Shown piece by piece: positions 7,801 to 52,217 of a stretch of DNA of 64,000 bases. A program made the translations under genes and the position numbers. Numbering within the stretch: the first letter of the stretch is position 1; every line of letters starts with the position of its first letter. The DNA is taken from positions 6,944,001 through 7,008,000 of the forward strand of contig JBHGNT010000016.1 of NCBI GenBank assembly GCA_043228905.1, written 5' to 3'. Below the pieces are notes generated by a model. The model saw nothing but the letters and a program-made list of their open reading frames with translations. It made no database searches and had not been told where the DNA came from. The stretch is from Azolla caroliniana. Its lineage: Eukaryota > Plantae > Polypodiophyta.

Positions 7801-10148
7801 GAATGCTGGTATTGTAGCAAAAAAGGCCACATGGAGAGCGTGTGCTGGAAGAAGAGAGCCGATTCAGCTTTGTAGAAGAGACGCAAGAAGGCGTCAGAAA
7901 TCGCACTACGTTGAAGGCTCCGAACAAGTTGGAATTGGATCAGGCCCAGCCTTCGTAATGAAGCACAAGGTTAATTCGATGAACGTGAATACTTCAAAAT
8001 CGAACGAGGTGTGGTATGTTGATTCCGAAGCATCAAATCATATGACGAGTCATGAGGAATGGTTCTCGTACTCGGAGAAACCGGAAATGCAAGGAGTGGT
8101 CGAAACGGGAGACGACACTCCGCATACCATTGAACATGTCGGAGAAGTTCCTCTCAGTCACGTCGGGCAGAACGGGAAACTTATGAACGTGTTGCACGTC
8201 CCGACAATAACTAAGAACCTTTGACAAGGGGATGCAACTTTGATTCATGCACCTCGGGTGCTACATCGAAGAAGAAGGCAAAGTAATCACGCAAGGGCGT
8301 CGTGAAGGGAGGATGTTCATCCTCGACACCAACCAAGTCGGAACCCCACTGTTTGTGAAAGGACAGAAGGTCGAATCGGACATCGACCTGTGGCACAAGC
8401 GGTTCAGCCACGTTAACTTCCCACGGCTTGTGAAATGTAGACGAAGAATATTTTTTTCTAATTGCCGAAATTTCGGGGCCGTAATGGCCAAGTCTACGAA
8501 GCCTGCCAACTAGGGAAGCAGCACCAACTTCCATTCCCCAATGAGCGTAATCGTAGTCGAAATCCGTTGGATGTGATCCATTCTTATGTGTGGGAACCGG
8601 CACAGAACGTGAGTCTCGATGGAAGCCGTTACTTTGTAACCTTCATCGATGAGTTCAGTCGGCATACCTAGGCATGTACGATCGCAAAGAAGAGCGAAAT
8701 CTTCGCATGTTTCCTGAAGGTAAAGAACCTTGTAAAAAGGGAAACAAGACGTAGGATCAAATGCCTACGGTCCGATGGCAGGAACGAGTACTTCTCCGAC
8801 CAGTTCACGGGTTAGCTATAGAAGGAAGGAATTCGATGTGAATTCTCGTGTAGATACACGCCACAGCAGAACAGCGTGGCCGAGCGGAAGAATCGGACGA
8901 TCGAAGAAGCCGTCAGGGCAATGCTTGAAGAGAAGCATATGCCAAAGTTTTACTAGGTTGAAGCCGTAAAGACGGTTGTTTACTTGCATAATCGAACCTC
9001 TGCCAATGGAGGAGTGTCGCCACATGACCTGTATTTCGAAAAGAAGCCGAACTTGGCACACTTGAGGATTTTCAGCAGCATTGCATATGTGCATGTGCCG
9101 AAGCAGAAGAGGAGGAAGCTGGACTCCAAAGCCGAGAAGTGTATCTTGGTCGGCTATTCGGACAAGTAGAAGGGGTATAAGTGCTATAACCCCCGAACAA
9201 AGGAAGTTCGCGTATGCCGAGATGTCATGTTCGACGAGTCCGCTTCATGGTACTTTGCCTTCACCTCCAATACCTCATGATTCCATTCTGAATTCTGAAG
9301 AAGAGTTCAACGAGGCTGATATGCCTCTGCGTGATGAGGATATAGGATCTCTAAGAGAGAGTCCGATCTCATTTCGGCTAAGTGGGCCGAATGAGGGGTT
9401 GGGCTGAGATGGCCAACCAAATGAAGAATAGGCGAGTAGTGGAGACTCGACCGTGTTGTCCCCGCGTAAAGAACCAAGGAGACGGTTTATGCGTAAGAAA
9501 AAGGGACGTACAAAGTGTTAGAATACGATTTCGGCAGTGCCGAGTTAGATTGGAGCGAATCTGACTTTGGGCCAATCGAGAAGGAACCTCCATGGAAGGG
9601 GTCGAAATCGACCGAAAAGATTGTGAAATCGGGTGATCACGAATTACGTCGATCTACCCGCTTGAAGAACCCCGTAAAAAGATACGGGTACAATGAATAC
9701 ATGGCGCACCATTATGCCTACATGACACGAGTGGTGGAAGTGCGTGAGCCGGAGAGCTACGCAGAAGCGGCGGAAGACGCAAACGAGCGTGCCACGATGG
9801 AGGAAGGGATGTGTGCATTATCGGACAACGAAACTTTGGACCTGGTTGACGCACCTAAAGGTGTTAAGCCGATCGGATGCAGATGGGTTTTTAAGGTGAA
9901 ATACAACATAAACGGCTCGGTCAACCGATATAAGGCCCGGTTGGTTGCGAAAGGCTACGCGCAGAAGCACGACGTAGATTATGACGAGACCTTCGCCCCG
10001 GTCACGAAGATGACTACCGTGCGAGTTCTGCTAGCCGTAGCTACTGTCATGAACAGTACTGAGACAGAGAAGGAATTAGTACTAAACGAAGGATTAGTAC
10101 TATGAGAGGTGTGGAACTTCTTCGAGAGAAGGAAGAAGTGAGCGAGAC

Positions 10149-10201
<53 letters not shown>

Positions 10202-10488
10202 TGATAAGAAAGATATTTATTATATGAAGAGAATATACAACGGTGGCTAAAAGGCTTAAGACTGGCGTTGAACCAATTTGGTTCAACATAATGCCTAGTG
10301 CCCTCTTTTATAGTGTTTTCAGGAGTAATCCTGAAGCTTCTAGAATGTTCCAGAGAAATCTGGAATATACACTAATTTCCTATAATAAAATGTAAATGAA
10401 AATAATATCCTACGTATTACAATAGATGGTCTAATGGTCAAGAGCTCGACCCATATAACCTAAGGTCATGGGTTCGAGTCTTGCCATA

Positions 10489-13400
10489 TCATGACACTAT
10501 CCCCCCTTTAAAACGACGAGTGTCACGAGTCGTCTTGGATTGAGGACCCGGTTTGTGTGGATATTGACGATGGAAGTCTTCAAGAAGAGCACGAGCATTG
10601 GTTACATTCTCGATCGGTTCCCAAGTACGTTCGCTGGGACTATAGCCTAGCCAATCGACTAGATAGTAGAGCTTGTTGCGAACAATCTTGGAATCAAGAA
10701 TGGCGGCAACCTCGTACTCCGGCCCATCTTCAAGCTCGATCGGGGGTGGAGGTTGGATAAGACGTTCTGGGATGGTGCTCTCGTGGTAGGGTTCGAAGAG
10801 AGAACTATGAAACACCGGATGTATCCGAAGTTGAGGAGGTAGATCGAGACGAAAAGCAACATCATTAATCTTTCCAATAATACGGAAAGGACCTAATCGC
10901 CGATAATCCAACTTCTCACATGGGCGAGTAGTCTTGATGTGTCGTCGTAGCAACCACACCCGATCTCCAATATTAAAACTAGATGGAAGTTGATGACGAT
11001 CCGCGTAGACCTTGTGTGTTTGTTGAGCTTGCTGGAGATGAGTAGATAAATCCGCTTGTATCTTGCGTAACCGCTCCAAATGATCCTCTGCGCACGGATT
11101 TGTGGACACCTCTGGGGTTTCAAGTACACTCCACTGGGGGTGACATCCCGTATAAGCATAAAATGGCGTAACTTTAGTGGATGCGTGGATAGAGTTGTTA
11201 TAGGCAAATTCGGCGAAGTGGAGAATATCTGCCCAGTCATCCTGATGATAGCTGAGAAAGCACCGCAGATACTGCTCCAACGTTTGATTTGTTCGTTCAG
11301 CTTGGCCGTCAGTTTGTGGGTGGTAGCCGGAAGAGAGGTTACAAGTGACCTTGAGCATGTTAAAAAGGTGCTTCCAGAATTTTGACACGAACTGGGGTCC
11401 ACGGTCGCTGATGATACTATCGGGGAGTCCATGATGCCGACATACTTCACGCATGACAATTTCGGCAGTGTCTTCACTGGAGATCTCCTTAGTACATGGC
11501 AAGAAATGAGCCATCTTCGTATATCGATCGACCACCGTTAGAATCGCATTGAACCCCTTAGAGACTGGAAGATCTGTGATGAATTCTAGAGCAATGGATT
11601 GCCACGGCTTGCTTGGAATTGATAATGGTTCTAATAAACCATATGGATGATGCCTTGGCATTTTCGCTCTGCAACATGTATCACAAGTCCGAACAAAATC
11701 CTCGACAAATTGTCGCATACAAGGCCACCAAAATGATCGTTGTACTAAATGTAATGTTTTAGTACTACCAAAATGCCCAGCTGTATATGTGTCATGACAG
11801 TTTTGTACTACTCGAAGGCGGCAAGAACCATTAGGAACATACAAAATTTCTTTAAAGAAGAGTAATCCATCATGGTATTTGAATTGCCGATAGTCCGTAC
11901 CTGGTGGTTGCGACTGTGAACACGACGCTCGAGAGGGGTCAATTTGTGCTAGTATAGCTTGGGCGAACGCATCTGTCTTCAAGTCTTCACGTATGGTATC
12001 GATAACGCGGGAATCCATAGGCATGTCAAATATTTGTGTTGCTTGTAATCGTGCCGGTCCCAAGATGACTTGTTTTTGGTTATCGAAAGCTGGCTCGCCA
12101 GGACGGGGTGCTAGATACGAACGTCGTGATAATGCATCTGCCTTCCCTTGGTGCCTCCCCGGACGATATGTAATTTTGAAGTCGAAACGCGTGAGGAAGT
12201 GGGCCCACCAAGCTTGACGTCGATTCAACACACGAGCATCCTGAAAGTAGCCAAGATTCTTGTGGTCACTAAATACGGTGACTGGATGAGAGGATCCCTC
12301 CAGAAAATGCCTCCATTGCATAAAAGAATCCACTATTGCCAATAGCTCCTTATCATGGATTTCGTAGTTGATGTCGGCGGCATCAAACTTGCGTGAGTGA
12401 AAAGCCACAGGATGTAGCTTTTCATCATTCCCCTGTTGTGACAGAATGCTCCCTAATGCAAAATCCGATGCGTCAGCTTCGATAATGAATGATTTCTCCG
12501 GATCGACATGAGCTAGAATTGGAGCCGATGTAAATGCTTTTTTAAGACTCTCGAAAGCCATGTCCGTTTCTTCAGACCAGATGAACGGTTGTCCCTTCCT
12601 GGTAAGTTGTGTGAGAGGTAGAACGATCTTTGAGTAATCATGTATGAACTTCCAGTAAAAATTGGCAAAGCCTAAGAAGCATTGCACATCCCGTACCGAA
12701 CGCAAAGTCTGCCATTCTACCACCGTTCTGACCTTAGCTGGGTCCATGGAGATGCCTTCTGACGAAATGATGTAGCCGAGAAATTCCACTTGGTTGCACC
12801 CGAAACTACATTTTTCTAGCTTTGCATACAGACCATGTTCTCGAAGTCGTTTTAGTACTAATAGTACATGAGAATCATGTTCTTCTTGGGTCTTTGAATA
12901 AACCAGTAGATCATCCAAATAGATGATCAAACAATCATCCAATAGATCTCGGAATATATCATTATCCATGTGCTGGAAGACTGCCGGCGCATTAGTGAGG
13001 CCGAACGGCATGACAGTATACTCGAAGTGCCCATATCTGGTGCGAAACGCGGTCTTCCATTCGTCTCCTGGTCGGATCCGTACGAGGTTATATGCTCCCC
13101 GTAAGTCGATCTTCGTGAAGAACCTGGCACCATTGATCCGTTCTAAAAGACTTGAGATAAGGGGAAGAGCATACCTATTCCTGATTGTAACCTTATTCAA
13201 GCCACGGTAATCTACAACGAGACGAAGCGATCCATCTTTTTTCTTGACGAAGAAAATGGGCGCACCGGTTGGAGATTTCGAATGCCGAATGAAACCATTT
13301 TCCAAATTCTCCTCTATATAGGCCCGAAGGACTTCCAGCTCGGTTGGTGACAAATTGTAGATCGGTCCCCATGGCGGCTCTTTTCCCGGTTGTAAATCGA

Positions 13401-14085
13401 TGGGGCAATCGTACGGTCGATGATGAGGAAGTGTGTTGGCTTGTACTTTATCGAACACATCGGTGTAATGGCGATACTTCTCGGGAAGTTGAACGGTGGA
13501 TTCTTCTTTAGTGGTGTTGGAGGGGTTTACTGATATTGCAAAGAGGAACATTTCCTCCTTGTGCCCTTCTTTACGCAACTGACGTAGCGAAATGGTTGCC
13601 ATCTTCTGAGTTGACCCTTGGGTTTGTCGACACCGGATTTCTCTTGTTCTCCAATCTATGTCAGGGTTATGTAACTCGAACCACGGTAGTCCTAAAACTA
13701 TAGGATGTTCTGGGATACTAATAATATTAAATGATACTACACATACTAAGTTATCTAGGACAATATTAATGGGCTCTGACTCTTCTAGGATATTTCCGGA
13801 AGCAATGGGACGTCCATCAATGACTACTACAGAGGCTGAACACTGGAGTTTTCTTAGGGATATCTTATGAGCTTGAGCAAATTTCTTATCCATAAAGCAA
13901 GAGTTAGCTCCGGAATCTAGGAGTGCTAGGACATGTATTGGAGGGGTACTTTTAGTACTAACTATTACTTGGGCTACGAACACATCACTAACTTGCTTAG
14001 AGGGAATGGAACCACTAATGGGCTGCACAGATCTAGGGTTGTCCAACCAAACGGCTCCTATTTTGGCTGGACTTAGTCGTTTAAC
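10489..14085 (-). CDS. pol: Element D pol (PR-RT-RNase H-IN-chromodomain), entered by a -1 frameshift
   Basis: Uninterrupted 1185-aa ORF with LLDSGA, MPFGLTNAP, YLDDLL, EADASD, HHCC zinc finger, SDRG, QTDGQAER, GPF and chromodomain YEVAAIL...YLVDWLGY...TWEP. Confidence 0.95.
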   Translation of the reverse strand, partial: VKRLSPAKIGAVWLDNPRSVQPISGSIPSKQVSDVFVAQVIVSTKSTPPIHVLALLDSGANSCFMDKKFAQAHKISLRKLQCSASVVVIDGRPIASGNILEESEPINIVLDNLVCVVSFNIISIPEHPIVLGLPWFELHNPDIDWRTREIRCRQTQGSTQKMATISLRQLRKEGHKEEMFLFAISVNPSNTTKEESTVQLPEKYRHYTDVFDKVQANTLPHHRPYDCPIDLQPGKEPPWGPIYNLSPTELEVLRAYIEENLENGFIRHSKSPTGAPIFFVKKKDGSLRLVVDYRGLNKVTIRNRYALPLISSLLERINGARFFTKIDLRGAYNLVRIRPGDEWKTAFRTRYGHFEYTVMPFGLTNAPAVFQHMDNDIFRDLLDDCLIIYLDDLLVYSKTQEEHDSHVLLVLKRLREHGLYAKLEKCSFGCNQVEFLGYIISSEGISMDPAKVRTVVEWQTLRSVRDVQCFLGFANFYWKFIHDYSKIVLPLTQLTRKGQPFIWSEETDMAFESLKKAFTSAPILAHVDPEKSFIIEADASDFALGSILSQQGNDEKLHPVAFHSRKFDAADINYEIHDKELLAIVDSFMQWRHFLEGSSHPVTVFSDHKNLGYFQDARVLNRRQAWWAHFLTRFDFKITYRPGRHQGKADALSRRSYLAPRPGEPAFDNQKQVILGPARLQATQIFDMPMDSRVIDTIREDLKTDAFAQAILAQIDPSRASCSQSQPPGTDYRQFKYHDGLLFFKEILYVPNGSCRLRVVQNCHDTYTAGHFGSTKTLHLVQRSFWWPCMRQFVEDFVRTCDTCCRAKMPRHHPYGLLEPLSIPSKPWQSIALEFITDLPVSKGFNAILTVVDRYTKMAHFLPCTKEISSEDTAEIVMREVCRHHGLPDSIISDRGPQFVSKFWKHLFNMLKVTCNLSSGYHPQTDGQAERTNQTLEQYLRCFLSYHQDDWADILHFAEFAYNNSIHASTKVTPFYAYTGCHPQWSVLETPEVSTNPCAEDHLERLRKIQADLSTHLQQAQQTHKVYADRHQLPSSFNIGDRVWLLRRHIKTTRPCEKLDYRRLGPFRIIGKINDVAFRLDLPPQLRIHPVFHSSLFEPYHESTIPERLIQPPPPIELEDGPEYEVAAILDSKIVRNKLYYLVDWLGYSPSERTWEPIENVTNARALLEDFHRQYPHKPGPQSKTTRDTRRFKGGIVS

Positions 14086-16223
14086 TCTTCTTCTAACTGA
14101 CTAAGGACATCAAATTTGTTTGCTAGATCTGGGATATTAGTACTATTAGGACTATCAGATATCCCTACTGAAATAGGCTCGGATTTAGTACAATTAGAAC
14201 TAGCGACTATTTGGTTTACCTGTCTTCTTGGCCTATGGGGGCAATTTATTGCGATATGTCCTGGTCCACCGCAGTAAAGACATAGTCGATTTGTACGGCG
14301 TCGCTGCTTTTCTTCTTCGGATAATGGCCCTCGACGACGTGTAGTGTCAATCTCCATCGGAGTCGGAGTATTCGCTGGAGACGAATTATATGACTCCCTC
14401 GGAAAAGGTCTTGCTACCACTGAGGCGTAGGTGGGCTCTGATCTTGCCCTCGGCATCTGTAACTGTCGTTCCGAACGTCGCTCAAAGAGGCGGTTGTCAC
14501 ATCTCACCGCGCGACTGATTGCTTCTGTTAAGGACTTTGGCTCTTCGGGGAAGGTCAAGAGTAAATCCTTGACGTCGTTGCGTAAACCATAACGGAATTG
14601 CTCCATCAACGCTTGATCATCCCAATGGATATCGGCGGCCAGTAGGCGAAAATCTGCAGCGTATGCGGAGGCTGGACGGTCACCTTGGCGTAATCGCCGG
14701 ATTTTGTTGATTGCGGTCCTGATGCTGTCAGTATCTCCGAAACATGCTTTAAACTCACCTAGAAACTCTTCAAAATTGTTGAGTAACGGAGATTCCTTTT
14801 CTAATAGTGGAGCGAACCATGACAACGCTGAGCCACTTAACAAAGTGCCTACTAAACCCACTCGTGATGCATCGGTGGGATATCGGGAAGGATGCATTTG
14901 AATAACTAATCGTACCTGGTTAAGGAACCCTCTAAACTGCGATCGCGTTCCATCGAACTTCGTGGGAAGGCCAATCTTAGGTTCTTTATGAATCCCTTGT
15001 GTTCCAGGCCCATGTTGTTGCATCGCTACGATGGTGGCTTCGAGTTGTTGCACGCTGTCGTGACGTGGCTCGCCTAGAAGCGTAGCGTTGCGCACACAAA
15101 GGATAACGTGAAAGTGAGGAAGGAATCACAGGGATTATGGACGGAAGAGACGAAAGAGTAGAGATAGAGTGAATAGAGATCAATAAGATATGACAAAATA
15201 GGATTTTTAAGGAATATAAGATAAGACAAGATAAGATATAAAATAATATATGAGAAAGTGTATGAAATTTGTAATCATTTTCATGAAAGAGTTACAAAAT
15301 GATTGTGCACGTCGTTGAACCTCCGAACTTTGTCTTGCAAGGTAATCGCTCTTCTCTTTCTTGATCGTAGACCACTACAATCTTCACTTCAATATTTTGA
15401 TGAAGATAAGGCTCGAACTGCCTCCCTCTTGTTGAGAGTTGACCACCACGACCGCCAAGCTAGAGCTCCACCTTTATCTTGAACTTCTTCCTTTCTTTCT
15501 CTATTTTATGGTATCTCTTATGTAATATATATTTGATTGATATCTCATACCTATCTCCCTTTGATCTTCTCTTTCACCATTTAAATAGGTGCCCCCATGC
15601 ATATGATGCATTGGAGGGTACAAATCATGCATGTAGTGCATGAAATGCATGTGATGCATGATCGCCATTTGGCGTTCATGTATTACATGTGATGCATGAT
15701 AAACATCTCGCTCATTTGAGCTTTTATGTATGAAACAATATATGCAATAACAATAAACATGAAAACATAATCTTAAAGAGAAAGGGCCTATCCTAATGGT
15801 AGGTGTGTCAACTTTGGTGTATGAGGTTGTGGGTTTGAGTCTCAAAATGCTATTGAATACAACATACAACTTTATTTTTATATCATGAAGCAAATCCTTT
15901 ATGTAATATAAAGTATATATAAAGTATGCTTTATTTTATGTATATTACTAGTATAGAGTAAATGGTAAGATTTGAGAGTCATAGGGTGGGGTTATTGGTT
16001 CAAGTCCTCTCTTGTTCGTGTAATATAATATATTTATCTATATATATATATTATTTTTCTTTACATATATATAATATTATCATATGTGTTGTTAACATTA
16101 TATAAAACATTATCAAATGTTATTTTAGTTACGTATTTATCTTATTGTAGACTTTTAATGTGAAGCTTTCGTACTTCACGACATCCACCCCCTCTAGACC
16201 TGCACATCCTCCGGCATGTGCCA

Positions 16224-16808
16224 CTATCTTTCATCTTCATGTTGATCTATTTGAGGAGGTTCAAGCTCAAACCTTTTCTTAAATACTTTTATCCTCTTTC
16301 CAGCTACCACGTTTAGGATTAGTGTCCCATCCAATTCACTAAGCTTATAAGTAAAGTTATCATATACTTTTCTTACTATATAAGGCCCAAACCATCTTTC
16401 AGCGAACTTGCGGACGGTGCTATGTTGATTATCTAAACTGCTATCATACACGAGTACCCAATCTCCTTCTTCTATTTTCTTAGGTCGAATTCTATGACTT
16501 TTATCAAAACGGATTTTATTCTTTAGTCGAGCCTCCTTCAATCGTTGGGCTGCTATTTCTATATCTTCAGGTCGACGCTCTAATTGTTGAATTCGCAAAG
16601 CAAGCAATTCTTCTCTGCTCACCTCTTCTCTCCATGGAATAGATATCCATGACATAATTGATTCTTCTATCGGCATGATGGGCTTTTGGCCAAGTATCAA
16701 TTCAGCTGGCATGTATCCTGTTACTGAACTATGAGTTGTTCGATCCGCCCATAGTGCATAAGGTAGCATGCGTGGCCAATCTCTTATTTTACCTTTACAG
16801 CTTTTCAC
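16224..16808 (-). pseudogene. Element E integrase C-terminal part, out of frame because of a short deletion
   Basis: WPRMLPYALWADRTT...WFGPY; frame break at ERGHSPI|VKSC. Confidence 0.85.
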
Positions 16809-19678
16809 CTTATTGGGCTATGTCCTCTTTCAATCTTTCCATTGGCTTCTGGATTATACGCAGTTGTAAGTGATAATTTGACCCCTATTCGGCTGAAGAA
16901 TTCTCTAGCTTCATCAGAATCGAGTTCTCCTCTATCTGCAATTATTTTACCAACACACCCGTAACGACATATTACATCTTCTAACAAAAATTTACATACA
17001 GCTCTAGTTGTTTTTTGTCGTAGTGGTCTTCCTTCTACTTGGTTTGTAAGGTCTTCTCTTGCTAGTACTAAATATCGCATTTGACCTTCCCCAAGTGGCA
17101 TTGTCACTAAATCAACCATCCATTTATAATGCATTGATGATGAATATGTTGGTTTTAGCTCATCTCGATACCGGATAGTTGAATATCTCTGGCAAACCTC
17201 ACAGGTTTCCACAAATTTCGTTACATCTTTATACATATGTGGCCACCAATACTTTTCTTTCAACTTCATAAATGTCGCCCATATGCCTCTATGTCCTGCC
17301 CACAAACTATCATGGAATTCATTAAATAATTTTCTCTTAATGTCATCCTTACAAATGACTCGAAGAGGATTCTCGATTGGCCTTTTTGGACGCCTCCATA
17401 AATGCCCTTCATGTAAAAAAAACTTGAATGCTCGTCTTCGAAATTCATTTAATTGTTTCTTTGACCATGATGGGTTGGCTTCTTGAGTCTTTAGAAAATT
17501 TCCTATTTCTAACCATTGACCTTCATACTCTGTGTCTTTGAACATTATACTTACATAAAACTCATCATGAGGCGTAATAGATTCTTGATGAGCAAATTGA
17601 TGGCTTGTAGTTGCCCAGTACTTATCTTCAGTTTGCATCACCTTTTCATTTATGAACCTTGCCCTTGACAGCATATCTGCAACTGGGTTGTCTTTTCCTT
17701 TTATATGCCGCAATTCTGGGTTCATGGTTCTGATGTATGCAATCCACCGAAGCATTGCAATATCTGGTGTCGTGCAACTTGCTATCATTCCAATGAGTGG
17801 CAAACAATCTGTTTCAACCACTACATCTGCTCCGATCAAGTAATCTCTATCTGTTTTTAATGCAGTAAGCAAACCCCACAATTCTCGTTTAACTTGTGCA
17901 TAGTTTCTTTGTCTTTCATTTAATATCTTTGCTCCAAATCTGATAGCATATCGATGTTGGTCTTCATCTTCTTGGTTGATAACCCAACCGATCCCGATTG
18001 GGCTAGTATCAACTGTTACTATAATTGGTCTTTCACCTTTGTAGTCTGGTTGACGAAGAACTGGTGCTTTCAGTAATTCTTCTTTCAACTGTTGAACAAC
18101 TTGTGTATGTTCATCAGTCCAAATAAACTTCTTTCCTTTTCTTAAAAGTTGGTAGAGAGGATCTGAGACATGTGCAAAGTGTGGTAACCAAATATGATAA
18201 AACACACATGCACCCAAAAATCTTCTCACCTCTGTTACCGAGTCGCAAACTTCCTTCATATTTTGTATTGCGTTAATTTTGATCGGTGAAGGCTTCCTCC
18301 CATACCACCCACACATATGACCAACTATTAGAACTTCGTTTTGCCCAAAGCAAGACTTTGTTCCTGATAGTGTCAAATGTACCTGCTCAAGCTTATTTAA
18401 AATACTTTCACAGTCATTAATGTGATCCATCACAAACTTTCTGCAACCATTTCCAACCATAGTCTCATCTTTCTCTCTTTCTAAGCATCCCTTTATAGGA
18501 ATATCATCTAAAAATGGCATAGTTACCTTTGGGATGTATTCATGTAGAACTTTGTTCATTGCATTCATCATATGAGCAACTGAATTCGTCGCACCTTGAG
18601 GTAGAGTGCACATTCGAACCAACCCAATTGGTGTTTTCATTGTTGTGATGTTGCGACTATCAATTGCTAGTTGAAATTGGTCGTATCCTGAATATAGGTC
18701 TCCCATAGAGTAAATCGCTCTTCCAGCAAACGCTTCCGCAAATTCATCAACGATCGGTCCGATTCCCACATTTCGGATTGTGACTTTGTTGACTGGTTGT
18801 AGATCTTGAATGAATCTTAGAGAACCATCTTTCTTTGGAACTGTGAACCATCTATTGGAGTATGGTGCATTTGAAGGCTCTAAAATCTTCATCTTGACTT
18901 TATCCTTCAACAGCTCCAACAATTGAGGTAATCGAGCTCTCGGTACTGCAATAGGTTTAAAATTCCAAGGAATATGAGGGATAGTAAATATTACCATTGG
19001 CGTCACCACCTTTGGATTTACACAACCAATCTCCTCAGCTTTGAATGCGAACGCTTTCCCATGCCTAAAGATCATTTCTTTGAAAGTTGCGATCTCTGAT
19101 TGCAGAAGAAATTCACCCCTTCCGATTCTCAAGTTATTTATTGTCTCCGAAGTGAAGTGATGTCCAATCTTCTCTATTGGTCGAAGCATAGGCTCAGTTG
19201 CTGCTGCCTCCATCTTCTCTTCACTACCAATAGGTAATGGTACTGCAGCAGGTTTGACCTTTTTATCTATTGTTTTGTATTTTGTATTACATAAACTTTC
19301 TACTTCTTCATATTTACAATTATACCTATCAATCTCATAATACATATCAATTGAGTTTACATGTATCTTTCTAACATTCTCATCATCTTCTTTCAAATAC
19401 ATTTCTAACTCTTCTAAAGTATTTGCAAAAGAAATTTCTTCCATAACACTTTCAATCTGCTCTTCCATTTCAAGTACTCCATTATCCTTCAATGCCTGCT
19501 GAAACAGATTAGCATTCTTTTTCAAGTTCCTCTTGCATTCATACATCCTAGTCACACATATAGCACCACTTTCAGAAACATGAAATGACTTATTCATATG
19601 TTGTAATGCCCTATATGAGGGTCTTTTAATAATGGGACTATTGCAACCCTCACGCGCAACAGTCCTAGTCAAAAACCT
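16805..19678 (-). CDS. pol: Element E RT-RNase H-integrase ORF (+1/-2 frame relative to gag-PR)
   Basis: LPQGATNS, FLDDI, VDTSP, HHCC zinc finger, WMVDLV, IADRGE, EANGKIERGH. Confidence 0.9.
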   Translation of the reverse strand, partial: RFLTRTVAREGCNSPIIKRPSYRALQHMNKSFHVSESGAICVTRMYECKRNLKKNANLFQQALKDNGVLEMEEQIESVMEEISFANTLEELEMYLKEDDENVRKIHVNSIDMYYEIDRYNCKYEEVESLCNTKYKTIDKKVKPAAVPLPIGSEEKMEAAATEPMLRPIEKIGHHFTSETINNLRIGRGEFLLQSEIATFKEMIFRHGKAFAFKAEEIGCVNPKVVTPMVIFTIPHIPWNFKPIAVPRARLPQLLELLKDKVKMKILEPSNAPYSNRWFTVPKKDGSLRFIQDLQPVNKVTIRNVGIGPIVDEFAEAFAGRAIYSMGDLYSGYDQFQLAIDSRNITTMKTPIGLVRMCTLPQGATNSVAHMMNAMNKVLHEYIPKVTMPFLDDIPIKGCLEREKDETMVGNGCRKFVMDHINDCESILNKLEQVHLTLSGTKSCFGQNEVLIVGHMCGWYGRKPSPIKINAIQNMKEVCDSVTEVRRFLGACVFYHIWLPHFAHVSDPLYQLLRKGKKFIWTDEHTQVVQQLKEELLKAPVLRQPDYKGERPIIVTVDTSPIGIGWVINQEDEDQHRYAIRFGAKILNERQRNYAQVKRELWGLLTALKTDRDYLIGADVVVETDCLPLIGMIASCTTPDIAMLRWIAYIRTMNPELRHIKGKDNPVADMLSRARFINEKVMQTEDKYWATTSHQFAHQESITPHDEFYVSIMFKDTEYEGQWLEIGNFLKTQEANPSWSKKQLNEFRRRAFKFFLHEGHLWRRPKRPIENPLRVICKDDIKRKLFNEFHDSLWAGHRGIWATFMKLKEKYWWPHMYKDVTKFVETCEVCQRYSTIRYRDELKPTYSSSMHYKWMVDLVTMPLGEGQMRYLVLAREDLTNQVEGRPLRQKTTRAVCKFLLEDVICRYGCVGKIIADRGELDSDEAREFFSRIGVKLSLTTAYNPEANGKIERGHSPIR

Positions 19679-21839
19679 GATTATCAAAATCATCACAGTC
19701 TTTTGGTATTAAATGATCACGAAGCTCTTGCTTGTTCCTCTCATGATTTGGGCGAACTGTCATAAATTGTACAGTTCGTCGTCCATCTTGGCTACGGATT
19801 TTCGCATAGGCAGAACCATTGTCGAGGACTTTGGTCTCCATTCGTACCGCTGTAATGTATGGTTGCCCTAGGATTATTGGATAGGTAGATCCTTCCTGCA
19901 CAAAGAAATGTTGATCTACCTCTATATCACCAATAGTAACCTTTACATTTGGGCATGCACCAAATAAATCTTCTGTGACTGATGTGGCAGCTTTTACTCG
20001 CCAACCATGTTGAGTATCAATTGGCCATCTACCTTTCCTGTAAAAATCAGCACTCATTATATTTATTTCAGAACCATGATCAATAAGTGCCATCACGGGG
20101 TCTGGAACATTTCCAATCTTCACATGATGCTCAGTAGTGGCTCTTGCCCAACATTTGCGAGAGTAATGGCTTCTTACATCTGTTGAATTTATCATTGAGG
20201 TTGATGCATGTTGAGAGTCAACAACGATATTGTTTGACTCGTTGCTCACCACTTCATATGCCACCTTCGGATTTGTCTCTTTAACCTGCTCATTTACTTG
20301 CTTCTTTCTTCGCACAATATCAATTATTTCATCATGAAATTCCTTTTTTGCAATACCTAACACTTCTCTTAGTGTAAATTCTACTCGACTGTCTAGTATT
20401 CTTGTTTCTAAAACTTTCTTTAAATCTGTATCCTTTTCAATATCAGACATTAATTTGAATGAAGGACCAGATTTACCTTTTTCAACTTTTGCGTCCATCT
20501 CTTTTCTTTTGCTTTCTCTTGTTTCATGCTTTTTGGTTGAGCCAATCTCATCATCCGATCTTTTCCTTTTTTCTTCCACTATCACCTCATGCTCTTGGTG
20601 TTCTGCCATCTGAGCATAGACCGTCATAGCATCTACTGGAACATCCCATCCAGTGTTTTTCCTTACAGAATCTCCGGCAACACGAAGGTCTTCCATCTTC
20701 ATCTTTTGCTTTTGTGCGGTACTTACAACCTTCTCCCAGAATGGTGATCGGGATGGCATGTCATCGAGGCGCACCCCTGCCGTTGCCGAGTAGTACATTG
20801 CGGAAGCCTTCTTTGCTTCAGCTTCTTCAAATTTAACCTTAACACCACCATCACCAAAGTTCTTTGTAAGTGGACTTCTAGTTTCAGTTAAATAAATGTT
20901 ACCATTTTTCCAATACACCAAGTCTCGATTTTCCATGTCTTTATATTCCGCACAATCACGTAATCGATGTTCGAGGCTATCACACCACATGCATCGAGGT
21001 CGAAATGGTTCCCTTGACCTCGAAGTCTGACCATTCTCAAGCTTTGCCACTTTAATTGTTAGATCTTTCATACTTTGAACTAAATCATCAAGCAAAGACT
21101 CACTCTTAGTTTCGATCATTTCTCGTGGTTGATGGACCATTTCGTGTGATGGTTCTTGACCAAGTCTTTGAACTTCGATGTTTTGCTCAAGCCGATTTGT
21201 GATTCCCACATGTGGTATTTGTAGCATTGCACCATTCCTTTGCATTCTTTTCATAAATTTATTACAAGCATTTGTTACCTCATTCCAATCTGCAGTTATA
21301 CCATCCTCAGTATTTGGTACTTCAAGCATGAATTCCAATTCTTTTCTATATCTCTTGTCAACTGCCTGCAAAAATAAAGCAACCTTTTGCCAAGACAAAG
21401 AATTTCTTTCTTCTGGCTTTAGGTGTCCATACATCCTATCAAACTCTTTTTTTGTGTCAGACACAGATAACCCTTTATCTTCTTTTAAGATCCATTCATG
21501 AAATGAACGCATAGTAACTCGAGAGAAATCCTCACGAGCATATTCAGACACAAGTGCTTCTTTGAATGCATTCCAATCCAAACTATGCAATGCTTGTATT
21601 TCATGAATTCTATCTCTTAATTCCATGTCCACTAATTTATAAAAGTTTGCTATCATATTGACATCATTTATACCAAACATTTCCATTTCATCATAATATA
21701 TATTCACATACTTCGAAATATTTGTGCCATCAAACATACCAATCTTCTCTCGGACTTCTCGTAAGGCATGAAATAATCGATCTTGATTCAACTTTTCAAT
21801 AAACAACATTACCGGATCCATTGTACTCGTACTTGCCAT
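19665..21839 (-). CDS. gag: Element E gag-protease ORF
   Basis: Open ~725-codon ORF with FDGTNIS, knuckle CMWCDSLEHRLRDC and aspartic protease-like ALIDHGSEINIM...IILGQP. Confidence 0.9.
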   Translation of the reverse strand: MASTSTMDPVMLFIEKLNQDRLFHALREVREKIGMFDGTNISKYVNIYYDEMEMFGINDVNMIANFYKLVDMELRDRIHEIQALHSLDWNAFKEALVSEYAREDFSRVTMRSFHEWILKEDKGLSVSDTKKEFDRMYGHLKPEERNSLSWQKVALFLQAVDKRYRKELEFMLEVPNTEDGITADWNEVTNACNKFMKRMQRNGAMLQIPHVGITNRLEQNIEVQRLGQEPSHEMVHQPREMIETKSESLLDDLVQSMKDLTIKVAKLENGQTSRSREPFRPRCMWCDSLEHRLRDCAEYKDMENRDLVYWKNGNIYLTETRSPLTKNFGDGGVKVKFEEAEAKKASAMYYSATAGVRLDDMPSRSPFWEKVVSTAQKQKMKMEDLRVAGDSVRKNTGWDVPVDAMTVYAQMAEHQEHEVIVEEKRKRSDDEIGSTKKHETRESKRKEMDAKVEKGKSGPSFKLMSDIEKDTDLKKVLETRILDSRVEFTLREVLGIAKKEFHDEIIDIVRRKKQVNEQVKETNPKVAYEVVSNESNNIVVDSQHASTSMINSTDVRSHYSRKCWARATTEHHVKIGNVPDPVMALIDHGSEINIMSADFYRKGRWPIDTQHGWRVKAATSVTEDLFGACPNVKVTIGDIEVDQHFFVQEGSTYPIILGQPYITAVRMETKVLDNGSAYAKIRSQDGRRTVQFMTVRPNHERNKQELRDHLIPKDCDDFDNQVFD

Positions 21840-21883
21840 GTTGATGTTGATCTTCACTTTAGATGTCTCTTCTACTTCCCCGT

Positions 21884-21901
21884 TTCACGTCGGGTTCACC
21901 A
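21884..21901 (-). promoter_or_regulatory. Primer-binding site (tRNA-Trp) of element E
   Basis: The plus strand reads TTCACGTCGGGTTCACCA, matching the 3' 18 nt of plant cytosolic tRNA-Trp(CCA) as recalled; 5-nt spacer to the LTR. Confidence 0.85.
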
Positions 21902-24900
21902 AATTGTGTCGTGACGTGGCTCGCCTAGAAGCGTAGCGTTGCGCACACAAAGGATAACGTGAAAGTGAGGAAGGAATCACAGGGATTATGGACGGAAGAG
22001 ACGAAAGAGTAGAGATAGAGTGAATAGAGATCAATAAGATATGACAAAATAGGATTTTTAAGGAATATAAGATAAGACAAGATAAGATATAAAATAATAT
22101 ATGAGAAAGTGTATGAAATTTGTAATCATTTTCATGAAAGAGTTACAAAATGATTGTGCACGTCGTTGAACCTCCGAACTTTGTCTTGCAAGGTAATCGC
22201 TCTTCTCTTTCTTGATCGTAGACCACTACAATCTTCACTTCAATATTTTGATGAAGATAAGGCTCGAACTGCCTCCCTCTTGTTGAGAGTTGACCACCAC
22301 GACCGCCAAGCTAGAGCTCCACCTTTATCTTGAACTTCTTCCTTTCTTTCTCTATTTTATGGTATCTCTTATGTAATATATATTTGATTGATATCTCATA
22401 CCTATCTCCCTTTGATCTTCTCTTTCACCATTTAAATAGGTGCCCCCATGCATATGATGCATTGGAGGGTACAAATCATGCATGTAGTGCATGAAATGCA
22501 TGTGATGCATGATCGCCATTTGGCGTTCATGTATTACATGTGATGCATGATAAACATCTCGCTCATTTGAGCTTTTATGTATGAAACAATATATGCAATA
22601 ACAATAAACATGAAAACATAATCTTAAAGAGAAAGGGCCTATCCTAATGGTAGGTGTGTCAACTTTGGTGTATGAGGTTGTGGGTTTGAGTCTCAAAATG
22701 CTATTGAATACAACATACAACTTTATTTTTATATCATGAAGCAAATCCTTTATGTAATATAAAGTATATATAAAGTATGCTTTATTTTATGTATATTACT
22801 AGTATAGAGTAAATGGTAAGATTTGAGAGTCATAGGGTGGGGTTATTGGTTCAAGTCCTCTCTTGTTCGTGTAATATAATATATTTATCTATATATATAT
22901 ATTATTTTTCTTTACATATATATAATATTATCATATGTGTTGTTAACATTATATAAAACATTATCAAATGTTATTTTAGTTACGTATTTATCTTATTGTA
23001 GACTTTTAATGTGAAGCTTTCGTACTTCACGACAACGCGTAACGCAAGTTCCCCATGTTGTTGTTGCGTTTGCTGCTTTTCTAAGGAGATTTGTTGAAGA
23101 TCCCCCAGCAACCGTTGGTTTTCTTGTTCCAAAGCATGGAACTTCTCCTTCAAGCATTGGAATTCCGAGAAAACAGATTGATATTCTTCAGCGCTAACAG
23201 TGGCCATGGGATGAAAGAAAAGAGGAATAAAAGATTAGTAGGAAATGAGAGAGACAGAAGGTAGGCAAATTGGTTCAAACTGTCATGAACAGTACTGAGA
23301 CAGAGAAGGAATTAGTACTAAACGAAGGATTAGTACTATGAGAGGTGTGGAACTTCTTCGAGAGAAGGAAGAAGTGAGCGAGACAGAGAGAAAGAGAGAG
23401 AGAGAGAGTGTGTGTGTGTGTGTGTGTGATGATAAGAAAGATATTTATTATATGAAGAGAATATACAACGGTGGCTAAAAGGCTTAAGACTGGCATTGAA
23501 CCAATTTGGTTCAACATAATGCCTAGTGCCCTCTTTTATAGTGTTTTCAGGAGTAATCCTGAAGCTTCTAGAATGTTCCAAAGAAATCTAGATTATACAC
23601 TAATTTCCTATAATAAAATGTAAATGAAAATAATATTCTACGTATTACAATAGATGGTCTAATGGTCAAGAGCTCGACCCATATAACCTAAGGTCATGGG
23701 TTCGAGTCTTGCCATATCATGACAGCTACGGCGAAGGGGTGGAATCTACATCTGATGGATGTAAAGAATGCTTCCTGCAAGGTGATCTTGAGGAACAGGT
23801 GTACATGGTACAACCCCCCTGATTTTTATCCGAACAGAACACTTCGGCAGTCTGCCGATTGAAGAAGGCATTATATAGACTTAAGCAAGCCCCACGAGCT
23901 TGGAACATGAAGATTACCCAATGGTTGTGTAGAATGCGGTTTACGACGTCCAAATTTGACTCTTTGTTGTTCGTTCGGCAAGGTCGACATGGACCGGTTT
24001 GTCTTTTACTTTATGTTGATGATTTAGTCATCGTTGGTGCCGACCTGGAATAAATCTGCCATGTCAAGTCTCAGCTCGCGGCGTCTTTCGAAATGAAGGA
24101 TCTTGGAGACCTTCATTACTTCCTCGGGATTGAAGTGATCCATTCCCCCAAACGCATATTCATCAGTTAGCGTCATTACGGGCTAAATATGTTCTTCAAA
24201 TTCGGGATGGCAGATTGTAAGCCCATCTCGACCCCTTTGGATAGAAATGTAAAGCTTTGCCGAGATTCGGGAAAGGCGTGCGACCCGACACGGTTTCGAC
24301 TGATTGTTGGAAGCCTCATCTACTTGACGATCACTCGGCCAGACTTGAGCTATCTGGTCGGAATGGTCAGTCAATTTATTTCACAACCCATGACTAAACA
24401 CCTTCAGTGCACGCAAAGGATATTACAATATGTCAGCGGCACAAAAGACATGGCGTTGTTGTATCGTGCAAACGTAGCTGAGCAGTCGGTCAGCTACATG
24501 GATGTCGATTGGGCCGGAAATGCCCACGATCATAGGTCCACATCCGGATACGCATTCTCATTGGGAAGTGTGGCGATTGCGTGAACCAGTAAGAAGCAGC
24601 TGACAATAGTGTTGTCGAGCACGGAAGCCGAATATCGAGGGGCGACTGTCACTACGTGCGAAGTCATTTGGCTAAAACGGCTATTACAGGATCTACAAGT
24701 AGAAGTGTCCGATCCAACGACAATCTACTACGACAACCTCAGCAGCATCCACCTTTCGAAAAACCCTGTATACCATGCTCGGACCAAGCACATTGAGGTG
24801 CACTACCATTTTGTTTGCGAGCGTGTCCTTTCTGGTGAAGTCGAACTGGCATATGTTCTGACATGTCGGTAGCTTGCCGACATCTTCACCAAGCCCCTTG

Positions 24901-33250: not shown

Positions 33251-35399
33251 ACATAGCATAAGTACTAAAGTTAATAACCCAAAGTTAAGTAAACTAGTAG
33301 CTCCAAGGTGCTCGACAACCATGCCGGTCCGGTTTGCCACCAAAAGGGTATACACTGGTCTAAATCCTAGGCCAACGCCATCGACGGAAAGTATAACTTC
33401 ATCAATTCATTGACATGTTATAGTGATGCACACAGAAACCACACAATGGCCAAGGAACGCCTAGATTAAAATGAATGTCGCATCCTTGTATAGTAAAATG
33501 TCCCCATGGAGTCACCTAGGCCAAACAACCTCAACAATTTAACCCCCCACTACTTTCGCGTTAATGACTTAATGGCTCTTGAGTTTAGCCCCCCTAAAAT
33601 CCCCCTCACAAAGGTTTCCATCTATGTAGTATTCATGTTACTTCAGCTCATGGATGTACAATGTATAGGTTGTGTACGTATACAATTTTTGTTGCATAGT
33701 ATAAGTTGTATATAAGTTACATATTCTACCTCAAACTCTATAACTCCCCCTTTATGCATAATCACTTAAAAGACAAATCTTGGTTCGTTGTTTTTTGTTG
33801 TTTTTCCTCACAAATAGAAGACACGAGACAAGCTAGCAAAGAAGCACCCTTGAAAAGTGCACACAACATGATCATTAGAAGCAAACAACCCAAGAAAGGC
33901 AATACCTGACGAGAGCTTGCGAATCGATGGAACAAAGCGACACATCATCACCCTCCCCATCCTCCTTGTCACCAACAACATAACACTTCCACTAACAACT
34001 AATTGAACAAAAAAAGTAATAATAATACCAATGCCCTAAATGCATAAATAAATAAATACATGCATAAACTAATTAATTGACTACTTTAAAAATAATATTA
34101 AATATAAATTAACAATTAAAAAAATTAATAATCAATCAATCAATTTTAAAAAAACAGCCCCTCACCATTGCCTTCATCATCACCAACAATAACCACCACT
34201 CATGCCTCCCCCTTGTACCCCTCACCCATAACCTTCACCTATACCCGCCAGCCTGTCATGAAGTCTCTCACCATCATTATCGTCTATCCACCATCCATAC
34301 CCATCCACCCACATCTTGTATCCGTCCTTCACCAACATACTACTCCTTCCTTTCGTGTCACTTGTCAACTCTTCAGTCATCCCCCCACCTCTCACAAATT
34401 GTATCAAATCTTCTCACCCACTCCCCAATGTTGACCTCCCTTGGCCCCTTGAATTTTTTGGATGATCGGCACAACATCCACCTTATGAGAATATTATCAA
34501 CACCCACCTGCATAATTAAGTTTTTGTTGCAACTTGTGTAAGACATTTGAAGTCAACTTCGGAAGTTATCTATGCTCTAGTTTTTAAGGGCATTGCTACA
34601 ACCTTCTTTCCCAAAAAATAAGATTCAAAAAATACATAAAAGCAAAATTTTGTGTTTTAGTAGGATGCAATATATAGGAAAATGGATTGTTTGCTTTATG
34701 ATGCATCGATAGAATCTTCTACAAATGAGACCTTTTTGTAAAATGCCAATGTATCAAGTTTTGAGGAAAATGTGGAGGCCCATACTTCACACATTATACT
34801 ATATGTTGCATTTAACTAGAAAATCATATTCTTCTCCAAACAGGTAACTGCACACATATTAATACGTGTTAGAATCTATCTTGTTGTCTATCATACAAAC
34901 CATTACATCCCTACAAGTTAAGCTAAGTTAGAATCCAATGTGATATAAGATGTTGGGGTTGAGACTAGACTATGCACATTTTTATCTAAATACGTTTGGG
35001 ATTCTAAGTATCACATTTTGATACAATTTTTTGCCTTTGATCACATTTGACGATGCTTTCATACATCTTCAACCAAACCCAATCCTTTCACATGCTCTAT
35101 AAATTAGGAAAGTTCTTGAACATCAAGAGTCACTACTCCATTTCACATGATGTCATGAAAACCTTGTATGTTTGGTTTCATAGGTCATCTTTAACCTCCG
35201 AAGTTAATAATCTCTCTCAGTCTCTTTGTCTTGAGTTTGAAACCCAATATTCCCACTTCTATTACTTTATACATATTCTCATAATTTCGTAGATGCCATT
35301 GTGGAATGTCAAGGTTGAACCCATGACCTTCTAGTCTTCATTGGGCAACCTTACCATCTAGGTCTCTCTTTTTTTGGTGAAAACACATAATTATAATAA

Positions 35400-36450
35400 T
35401 AAATGTGTGTGGAAAACAGTACTTACAATGGGTGTCACAACAGACTATGGTCACCCAATAACTACATGGGTAGTGAATTGCCAATAGGCAAGACAAACAC
35501 TCCACTGAGGAAAGAATTTTCACTTGGTCCAATAAAGAGAATTGTCACATTAGTGCTCCCTTCAACTTTCGTGCTCATGCTTTCACTCCATGCAGATCCC
35601 AATTATGACGCAATTCCCAGTACCTCAAAAATAGGAAAACAATCTCCATTTCTAACGTGAGTTAATCTATTTAAATTGTGCAAACACCCACTGTCTAGGC
35701 ATCAAATAACATAGTGATAAAAGTTGCCAATTTTGAGAAATGTAACTCCAAATCTGAGAAGCAATCGAACATTGTATAAAACCATGAGTATTATCTTCTA
35801 TTTGAACAGTGCAAAAGAAGCAATTGTTTATCGCTAGTCCATGGCACTTTAGAGCTAATTCCAAAAGCAGGCCCCCAATCAAAACTCTCTAGATGAAGAC
35901 CTTTGTTACAAATGGCAATTTAGAATGCCAACTATGTTTTAAGATCTACCTCCACCCATAATAGATTTGTATATTTTCTATTCTTCTTCAACCTTAGATA
36001 ATAGTCATCCAAGTGACTCAACCGAGCAATGATACAAAAGATTAGTAGTCACTTGTAAAAACGACGTTTAACCCCATAAACACTTATCAATCCACGATTT
36101 TTCTCATAACTAGGCAATACATAGCTAGAGTTTAGTGTGTATTTTTTGCTAGATAAACTCATAATTAGGTAGGATGTGTAATAATTGTTACGCTTCAACA
36201 AACTCCAAAATTCTTTGAGATGGAGCCTCAACCATAGCTCCCACCTCTTTGACCCCCAAACGAAACAAACGATTAAATTGATAATGCAATCTCTCCTTTT
36301 CGGGCCAACATAGTAACCAAGAAAATACAAGTAACTCGTTTTGCAAAGAATTACAATGCTCTCTACTAGATGATGGTTTCCATACACATAACAAGAGTGC
36401 TTCTTGCCATGAGATAACCAAGTGTTGAGCACATGAAGAGCTAGGCATCT
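35400..36450 (-). mobile_element. Degenerate L1-type LINE ORF2 3' remnant (zf-RVT)
   Basis: CFFCTVQIEDNTHGFIQCSIASQIW in ORF 35667-35882. Confidence 0.55.
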
Positions 36451-46724: not shown

Positions 46725-47342
46725 ATGTATGTATGTATGCTATGTATGTGTGTTATGTATGTATGTGTTTATGTTATGTGTGTAATGTATGTATCTACAT
46801 ATGTGTCTATGTATGTATGTATCTATCTATCTATCTATCTATCTATGTGATGTATGTATGTATGTATCTATTTATCTATCTATGTGATGTATGTATGTAT
46901 CTATTTATCTATCTATGTGATGTATGTGTGTGTATGTATGTATGTGTGTGTGTATGTTATGTGTGTAATGTATGTATCTATGTGTCTATGTATGTATGTA
47001 TCTAAATATGTATCTATCTATGTGATGTATGTGTGTGTGTATGTATGTATGTGTGTGTGTATGTTATGTGTGTAATGTATGTATCTATGTGTCTATGTAT
47101 GTATGTATCTAAATATGTATCTTTGTATGTATCTAAATATGTATTTTGTATGTATCTATGTATCTATCTATCCATGTGATGTATGTATGTATCTATCTAT
47201 GTGATGTATGTATGTATCTATCTATCTATCTATGTGATGTATGTACAGTATGTATGTATCTATCTATGTGATGTATGTATCTATCTATCTATGTGATGTA
47301 TGTATCTATGTATGTGTCTATGCGTCTATGTATGTATCTATG
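46725..47342. repeat. Compound TATG/TATC/TG microsatellite
   Basis: Seen directly in the sequence; source of spurious Cys/Tyr/Val ORFs. Confidence 0.95.
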
Positions 47343-51295: not shown

Positions 51296-52217
51296 CATGG
51301 GCATAGATTGAAATATTCTCATTCGTGGGGCCTGCCCCACGAATCCATACGAATAGGAATACGAATACATGTAAATATATTTGTTTTCTTCTTTTTTTTG
51401 AAATTAAAAAAAAATAAAAATAAAAAATTGTGTTTTATTTACGAGCGAGTGAACAGTGGCCAACAGGAAGCGAAGACGCCTCACCCTACTCCCTCTACGT
51501 GCTACTTACACCCTCGCTTCCCTCTATATCCTGTTCTCGGCCAGAAATTAGGGTTTCGACAAAAAACCCTAATTTCTGTCATAATCCTAATTTCAACAAA
51601 ATTTCTTCTTTTCGGCCTGCGTCATCGACTCCCTCTCATGCTCTACCTAATCCTACATCTTGTTGTCCGCTGCAAATTTAGAGTTTCACTAAAACCCTAA
51701 GTTTTGCCAAAGCCCTAATTAATTAATTATTAATGCATTAATTAACTAATATTTTCCAATGAATTAATTAATGTGTTAATGAATTAAGATACGTATTTGT
51801 AAATTAATTAATGTATTAGTGAATCAATTAATGTTTAAGTGAATTAATTAGTTAATAGTAAATTAATTATTATATTAATGAGTTAATTAATTATTGATGT
51901 ATGTATGTGTACACATATATGTATGTGTGTGTATATGTATCTATGTATGTGTGTGTATATGTATCTATGTATGTGTGTATATATGTATCTATGTATGTGT
52001 GTGTATATGTATCTATGTATGTGTGTGTATATGTATATATATGTTTGTGTATGTGTGTATATATGTATGTGTATGTATGTATGTGTGTATATGTATATGT
52101 ATATGTAAATGAATGGTTTTATAATATTCTTAGGGCCATTTTCTATTCTCGAATACCACAAATATTACGGATGTCGAATCTCAAGAATATCACGCATGGA
52201 TCAATCTATGGCCATGG
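51296..52217. mobile_element. TIR-bounded non-autonomous element containing telo-boxes, AATT repeats and a TATG microsatellite
   Basis: CCATGGGCATAGATTGA at the left end and TCAATCTATGGCCATGG at the right end; no TSD identified. Confidence 0.5.

Follow-up and report, generated by a model that had tools for sequence, protein, structure and literature searches.

Paired A and B boxes of tRNA type recur within the LTRs (long terminal repeats) of many families in two distant Gypsy lineages of the Azolla caroliniana genome, nearly always antisense to the element and towards the 5' end of the LTR, on its U3 side. These modules are a real and recurrent feature, narrower than the general retrotransposon strategy put forward in the original prediction, since they are absent from several other lineages. 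On our analysis, a module would be a tRNA-derived A/B-box pair that binds TFIIIC/TFIIIB at the DNA level and acts as a chromatin barrier outside the Pol II promoter of the element, a reading that has about an even chance of being correct.

Element E and its three modules

The window (the whole stretch of 64,000 nucleotides that was analysed) contains a nested set of elements, in which Copia-type coding remnants are split by element D and D is itself split by element E. The genome amounts to 523 Mb. The two Gypsy elements are laid out as follows:

10045..23724, minus strand: host element D, a chromodomain Gypsy, with E inside its gag
10045-10496 and 23281-23724, minus strand: LTRs of D, 95% identical
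23270-23280, minus strand: self-priming site of D
15056..16183, minus strand: 3' LTR of E, 1128 nt, target-site duplication (TSD) ACGC
21907..23034, minus strand: 5' LTR of E, 1128 nt
21886..21901, minus strand: primer-binding site (PBS) of E, complementary to the 3' end of a nuclear tRNA-Trp(CCA) found in this genome
16224..21884, minus strand: coding region of E, with a gag-like ORF (19665-21884) and pol (16805-19708; RT, RNase H, integrase)
16224-16817, minus strand: 197-aa ORF overlapping the end of E pol, with no Pfam match

The LTRs of E are 100% identical across 1128 nt, and the element has a total length of 7,979 bp with a 4-bp TSD. No chromodomain was found in its coding region by Pfam; of 16 other E flanks, 14 have NCGN at their end. 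By these features and its Trp primer, E fits the moss Ty3/gypsy lineage Phygy, for which the absence of a chromodomain, a 4-bp NCGN site and a Trp primer are described in passages of Neumann 2019 (PMC6317226). D encodes RT, RNase H, integrase and a chromodomain (Pfam Chromo, E 4e-14), is flanked by a 5-bp TSD (GCTAC) and, instead of a tRNA PBS, has TTGGTTCAA of its LTR repeated after the 5' LTR in a self-priming arrangement; by chromodomain and self-priming it fits Tcn1, as described in passages of the same source. The U3/R/U5 borders of E referred to below were placed by inference. Contigs of run X1 have indels at 16796-16810, near the overlap of the 197-aa ORF with pol, and this ORF may therefore belong to the integrase C-terminus in relatives. 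Elsewhere in the window, long compound TA/TG/TC microsatellite arrays lie at 46744-47330 and 51878-52130.

Three modules were found in the E LTR, two antisense (E1 and E2) and one sense (E3), where only E1 had been predicted:

15954..16007, plus strand: E1 in the 3' LTR, antisense to E; A box TAGAGTAAATGG (15954-15965), B box GGTTCAAGTCC (15997-16007)
22805..22858, plus strand: E1 in the 5' LTR, pointing out of the element; A box starts at 22805, B box at 22848
15789..15842, plus strand: E2 in the 3' LTR, antisense, homologous to the module of sister families; C56T in the B box and G10T in the A box
22640..22693, plus strand: E2 in the 5' LTR (identical LTRs)
15410..15462, minus strand: E3 in the 3' LTR, sense to E; A box 15462-15452, B box 15419-15410
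22261..22313, minus strand: E3 in the 5' LTR
15580..15587, minus strand: candidate TATA-like box of the E LTR, picked by eye, with similar boxes in related LTRs; E3 is downstream of it
15900..16183, minus strand: 5' add-on of the E U3, 284 nt, holding E1; not present in the sister family (G000:C6:14.279 Mb)

For E1, the boxes lie exactly where they had been reported, 43 nt apart from start to start with TCATA between them, and the second copy is likewise present in the 5' LTR. The module is on the plus strand and is antisense because E runs on the minus strand. It also forms the described GC-richer island, with 41% GC against 19% and 16% in the flanks. A fixed weight model, built from the consensus of tRNA boxes, was employed to score A+B pairs. 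E1 scored 22.8 bits and the D module 27.1 bits, with A-to-B spacings at tRNA distance (43 and 44 nt, respectively), and both scores fall inside the range of tRNA genes called by ARAGORN in this genome under the same model (12.4-28.5 bits, most above 21).

None of 2000 dinucleotide shuffles of the E LTR reached 22.8 bits on either strand. A sample of 864 kb, comprising the window, five larger stretches and three of 20 kb, several of them chosen as element-rich and so non-random, gave 26 hits of at least 22 bits, many of them copies of the same families, against 1-3 in shuffles. Genome-wide, one tight A+B pattern matched 4,268 times, its reversed control once. The frequency of the motif in LTRs is therefore far above chance expectation. 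At a threshold of at least 19 bits, shuffled DNA still gave 11-18 hits per 864 kb, so weak hits are unreliable; such hits are what would favour chance matches in AT-rich DNA, an explanation that is refuted for E1 and D and scarcely credible in general.

The E1 module is not a tRNA gene. No tRNA gene was found at the modules by ARAGORN, no tRNA match was returned by Rfam at E<=10, and a relaxed ARAGORN search of the modules gave noise only. E1 folds no better than shuffles (z +1.1) and forms 0 of 7 acceptor pairs and 1 of 5 anticodon-stem pairs. Among 17 representative LTR modules, which were picked by box score, conservation of the boxes is partly circular; the tRNA variable-loop letters, which stand outside the scoring model, are also conserved among them (A44 in 15/17, G45 in 15/17, G46 in 17/17 and T47 in 14/17). 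Pairing in the anticodon stem was at chance, with 1.94 of 5 pairs in the 17 modules compared with 1.79 for the null and 4.34 in 41 tRNAs; acceptor and T stems paired slightly above chance. The part between the boxes was nearer to a real tRNA than shuffles were, at P<=0.05, in 9 of 19 modules. With the boxes and the variable-loop AGGT kept while cloverleaf pairing is lost, the modules look like DNA promoter elements rather than tRNA genes. In practice they deserve attention because false calls of tRNAs or SINEs can arise from them.

The stretch between the E1 boxes was nearest to plastid-type tRNA-Met(CAT) among 54 tRNAs (P 0.004 against shuffles), a tRNA that joined the panel after its likeness to E1 was noticed; the panel is without many nuclear isotypes and includes organellar genes, and isotype calls made with it are weak. 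The earlier remark on TCATA in the anticodon position fits this likeness. Organelle-type tRNA genes occur on chromosome-scale contigs at L361 (G000 C17:1.9437 Mb), L113, L208 and L209, and the plastid-type tRNA-Met best matching E1 is among them. A pattern for the B-box side of E1 had 261 matches genome-wide, with the CpG-free form GTTCAA in 97 of the first 100.

Other copies of the E LTR were compared next to those in the window (n = 29, mostly chosen as perfect E1 matches). The E2 B box reads CG in 17 of them, TG (C56T) in 9, CA in 2 and GG in 1, and the B-box CpG of E3 is retained as CG in 27 of 28 scored. Copies with C56T are scattered on the LTR tree, and a single E sub-lineage with inactive E2 was rejected on that ground; both LTRs of E in the window carry C56T, which tells only that the 3' LTR of the parent had it. 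Positions 285-617 of the E LTR align at 82% to positions 8-343 of the sister LTR, that is, to its start; the 284 nt before this point, which contain E1, are therefore an add-on, and of the two modules E2 is older. Among the DNA examined, positions 1-280 of this add-on matched nothing clearly except other members of the E family. A tandem duplication of E2 as the origin of E1 was rejected, as the two do not self-align. Contigs of runs X1 and X2 (type uncertain) cover parts of D and E, mostly at 80-95% likeness, with the E1 A box uncovered, and were given no weight for or against expression; one loose end in X1 beside 15845 resembles an E2-type B box, as a hint only.

Distribution and conservation among Gypsy families

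The original prediction had rested on the presence of the same module in D, which is placed as follows:

10427..10480, plus strand: D module in the 3' LTR, antisense, abutting the LTR terminus; 27.1 bits
23655..23708, plus strand: D module in the 5' LTR

As had been claimed, D and E differ in TSD length (5 and 4 bp), in primer and in chromodomain. LTRs that share modules are otherwise unalignable; the E LTR gives no blastn hit to that of D, nor to L063 or L087. Orientation is the same in the two elements, but the claim of an equal position stands only loosely, the B box lying 26 nt from the LTR 5' end in D but 187 nt from it in E.

Every self-primed chromodomain (Tcn1-like) family sampled has antisense modules, and so do the AT-rich Trp-primed (Phygy-like) families. 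Four of five intact self-primed elements carry one in the 5' LTR, the fifth having its module in the other LTR, and in diverged Tcn1-like relatives the module adjoins the LTR terminus. In the AT-rich Trp-primed families its place is upstream of the TATA-like box, sometimes in two copies, and one such relative also has a downstream sense module. Within the largest AT-rich Trp-primed group, a set anchored on the PBS and not chosen by score, a homologous antisense module was present in 22 of 26 LTRs.

No antisense module was seen in 13 intact Met-primed elements (presumed Copia), in 30 Met-PBS loci (a single hit there, at 18.2, was sense) or in any of five LTR pairs that represent two other Gypsy lineages. 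The GC-rich Trp-primed families account for 26 of the first 30 among 5,585 Trp-PBS matches and had no antisense hit scoring at least 19 within 800 nt of the PBS at any of 26 loci. These absences argue against a general strategy, and also against the suggested link with copy number, because the most abundant Trp-primed clade is the one without the antisense module. On an RT tree of 40 rows, built from elements of this genome only, the GC-rich families group together in a single clade (100/100), which is placed inside the module-bearing families; deeper nodes are moderately supported (90/73-93/91). The simplest reading is ancestral presence of the module and one loss, in the most successful clade, and the module is thus dispensable for amplification. 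In GC-rich Trp-primed LTRs (e.g. L073, L084 and L089), a sense B-box-like site with a weak A box lies 59 nt before the LTR end; at 18-19 bits (P 0.03-0.12) it was not counted as a module and may be part of a U5 hairpin.

The D module (window 10420-10493) forms one long hairpin on folding (z -4.5), and its inner inverted repeat recurs, weaker, in related families. Together with the position of the module in Tcn1-like families, where it abuts the LTR terminus beside the polypurine tract, this strong inverted repeat would suit a replication structure or protein site of tRNA descent (a hairpin at the U3 end, or a signal for integrase or RT) as the feature being conserved. Phygy-like modules, in contrast, lie approximately 60-490 nt from the LTR terminus and share no common fold, and E insertion flanks fell near modules in 0 of 16 cases against 30 of 1231 background windows, a comparison of low power. 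We regard a replication structure as very improbable. Self-targeting of E insertions to modules was likewise not seen in that comparison.

Decay of the B box was followed through its CpG. The first 100 of 3,678 matches to a Phygy-type B-box pattern comprised, by our own count, 47 CG, 26 CA, 24 TG and 3 TA. Loss of the CpG after insertion is heavy and symmetric on both strands, and CG is the source state across families. Since the CpG is often lost in copies yet remains the common state across families, we infer selection on the boxes in replicating lineages, which, like TFIIIC binding and a barrier role, has the standing of a prediction.

The distance from the modules to the first T4 run varies from 10 to 1379 nt and is not conserved, so a role as DNA fits better than a defined RNA. 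This bears on the alternative of active Pol III promoters, in which short or read-through antisense RNAs made from the modules would adjust the element or its silencing, much as in foamy viruses. E1 has an AT-rich, TATA-like upstream region and a T run 57 nt past its B box; the corresponding distances are 43 nt for E2 and, for a T4 run after sense E3, 120 nt. The long hairpin of D would also suit such an RNA, as would the 909 nt without T4 that follow the B box of the D 3' LTR on the antisense strand (window 10480-11380; 12/2000 synonymous resamplings, post hoc); long T-free stretches occur in two relatives of D too, with other relatives lacking them. The terminator spacing is inconsistent between families, however, and T runs are expected in AT-rich DNA. 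Moreover, E1, E2 and E3 fold no better than shuffles, z falls below -2 in 2 of 17 LTR modules, with D and one relative alone folding strongly, and the D hairpin has no terminator inside the LTR. Pol III transcription of this kind appears rather unlikely.

Possible donors and routes of capture

The first 30 of the 4,268 genome-wide A+B matches were 9 of Phygy type, 8 of Tcn1 type and 13 in non-LTR repeats (SINE-like or related). One copy of a SINE-like repeat lies in the window:

35229..35431, minus strand: SINE-like non-LTR repeat copy with a related tRNA-type module

This repeat, also found at L231, L233 and L250, is approximately 190 nt long, sits in (GA)n tracts and has a tRNA-type head, an A-rich end and a second, opposed (convergent) module. 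Two LTR-like remnants, which are of Tcn1 type by architecture only, have a module with 84-88% identity to this head. Convergent or exchanged capture of Pol III promoters, as originally supposed, receives some support from this sharing and from the absence of the E1 add-on in the sister family.

Capture from a primer tRNA is suggested by four loci, at which the PBS after an LTR-type end runs on through the T loop of tRNA-Trp, corresponding to an antisense B box:

L373, G000 C10:10.4466 Mb: extended PBS
L374, G000 C11:10.4763 Mb: extended PBS
L375, G000 C6:16.3096 Mb: extended PBS
L376, G000 C12:10.4334 Mb: extended PBS

Three of these match an L063-type LTR and one matched no reference, and two are joined to an inverted LTR end. 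They are likely traces of primer read-through and template switching, and they suggest that copying of the primer by reverse transcriptase occasionally goes beyond the usual stopping point. Read-through of this kind would lay the B box antisense, so the antisense bias may be partly mechanical. Origin of the modules from the Trp primer was rejected, as nuclear tRNA-Trp was, within the panel of 54, the best match of 0 of 19 modules, though with a tie for E2.

SINE heads or primer-tRNA read-through copies caught in LTRs could also be neutral passengers, copied along with successful families. The shared SINE-like head and the extended-PBS loci would be expected in that case, as would the loss of the module by a large clade and the decay of E2. 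Against it, the boxes, the AGGT motif and a decay-prone CpG persist across families whose LTRs cannot be aligned, a second module was acquired by E on the side and strand of the first, and nuclear tRNA-Trp is not the best match of any module. A purely passive history is accordingly judged unlikely.

This genome also has tRNA genes (Arg, Lys/Asn, Trp, Ile) in long tandem arrays, in which variant copies are numerous:

G000 C1:25.11-25.14 Mb: tRNA array
G000 C5:17.99 Mb: tRNA array
G000 C8:17.80-17.82 Mb: tRNA array
G000 C16:4.99-5.11 Mb: tRNA array
G000 C2:20.11 Mb: tRNA array

Predicted barrier role and comparison with known systems

Under the preferred barrier reading, TFIIIC/TFIIIB are predicted to bind the modules, which flank the Pol II promoter of the element on its outer side, and a bound module would serve as a barrier or open-chromatin anchor shielding that promoter. 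Antisense orientation would prevent read-through by Pol III from the 5' LTR into the element; it may also follow from entry as a tRNA copy, as RT copies of the primer tRNA land antisense. In E and one relative, the promoter would have a module on either side, the sense one lying downstream of the TATA-like box. Several observations count against a barrier: the most abundant Trp-primed clade is without the module, 9 of 29 other E LTRs carry C56T in E2, and related modules are abundant in non-LTR repeats (13 of 30 hits, the first ones listed), so that donors for passive capture are plentiful. We advance only tentatively, as possible but on balance doubtful, the wider proposal that two distant autonomous Gypsy lineages repeatedly captured tRNA promoters as portable TFIIIC insulators that bracket the Pol II promoter and leave it usable in heterochromatin.

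Were this insulator proposal true, thousands of sites for the Pol III machinery would have been seeded genome-wide, with RT read-through of tRNA and the SINE-like repeat as donors. If TFIIIC is bound, the families would carry an anti-silencing or insulator device, and the thousands of candidate TFIIIC sites would be far above what tRNA genes suggest. Natural contrasts are provided by module-bearing and module-free Phygy-like clades and by intact and C56T copies of E2.

The model for the proposed function is the tRNA-gene/TFIIIC barrier of yeast, where A/B-box DNA acts on chromatin beside silenced domains. There, barrier function depends on the A and B boxes (PMC7990762), and the barriers seem to need the full Pol III apparatus (PMC7990762), which counts against the barrier reading. 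The yeast barriers are host tRNA genes, demonstrated by deletion and not carried on a mobile element (PMC7990762), whereas the role proposed here is a prediction.

Foamy-virus LTRs provide another case of A/B-box units inside the LTR of an autonomous retroelement, and their Pol III cassettes have been shown experimentally to make hairpin miRNA precursors with defined terminators (PMC3993851). The modules described here differ in that E1-E3 are without a stable hairpin, terminator spacing is unconserved and the D hairpin lacks a terminator inside the LTR. Cassandra and Ajax likewise have an internal Pol III promoter in a plant or animal LTR; they are 5S-derived TRIMp3, non-coding mini-elements in which the promoter drives the element's own RNA (PMC10886601, PMC12786077), and their promoter is of 5S type, unlike the modules here.

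In the full-text literature searched, to which Repbase, subscription papers and supplements (Helenus Table S1, REXdb) did not belong, no description of such modules in autonomous moss-type Gypsy LTRs was found. PMC7466625 has 0 hits for tRNA, polymerase III or SINE, the excerpts of PMC2864245 do not mention tRNA-type LTR modules, and the accounts of Phygy and Tcn1 in the passages of PMC6317226 cited above do not mention tRNA-like LTR modules.

The closest likeness is to Helenus (TRIMp3; Kojima 2024, PMC10886601), in which tRNA-derived LTR sequence is kept at boxes A and B and is non-functional as a tRNA, as in the modules here. Its proposed origin is capture of a SINE, and 'not a few' Repbase LTRs are said to hold tRNA-like sequence (PMC10886601). 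Helenus elements are non-autonomous and 311-1263 bp long, with a promoter proposed to make the template RNA and a sole plant family from Selaginella, and autonomous elements are expected to use Pol II (PMC10886601). E, in contrast, is 7,979 bp long with a gag-like ORF and pol, D has RT, RNase H, integrase and a chromodomain, and the modules are mostly antisense and number up to three per LTR. They are not placed to make template RNA, as E1, E2 and D are antisense and sense E3 meets T4 after 120 nt. Size, coding capacity and orientation therefore all place E and D outside TRIMp3. In plant LTRs, Pol III promoters are described for tiny non-coding elements, in which they make the element's RNA; here, Pol III-type boxes sit in large protein-coding families, mostly facing outward, and have been gained, duplicated and lost.
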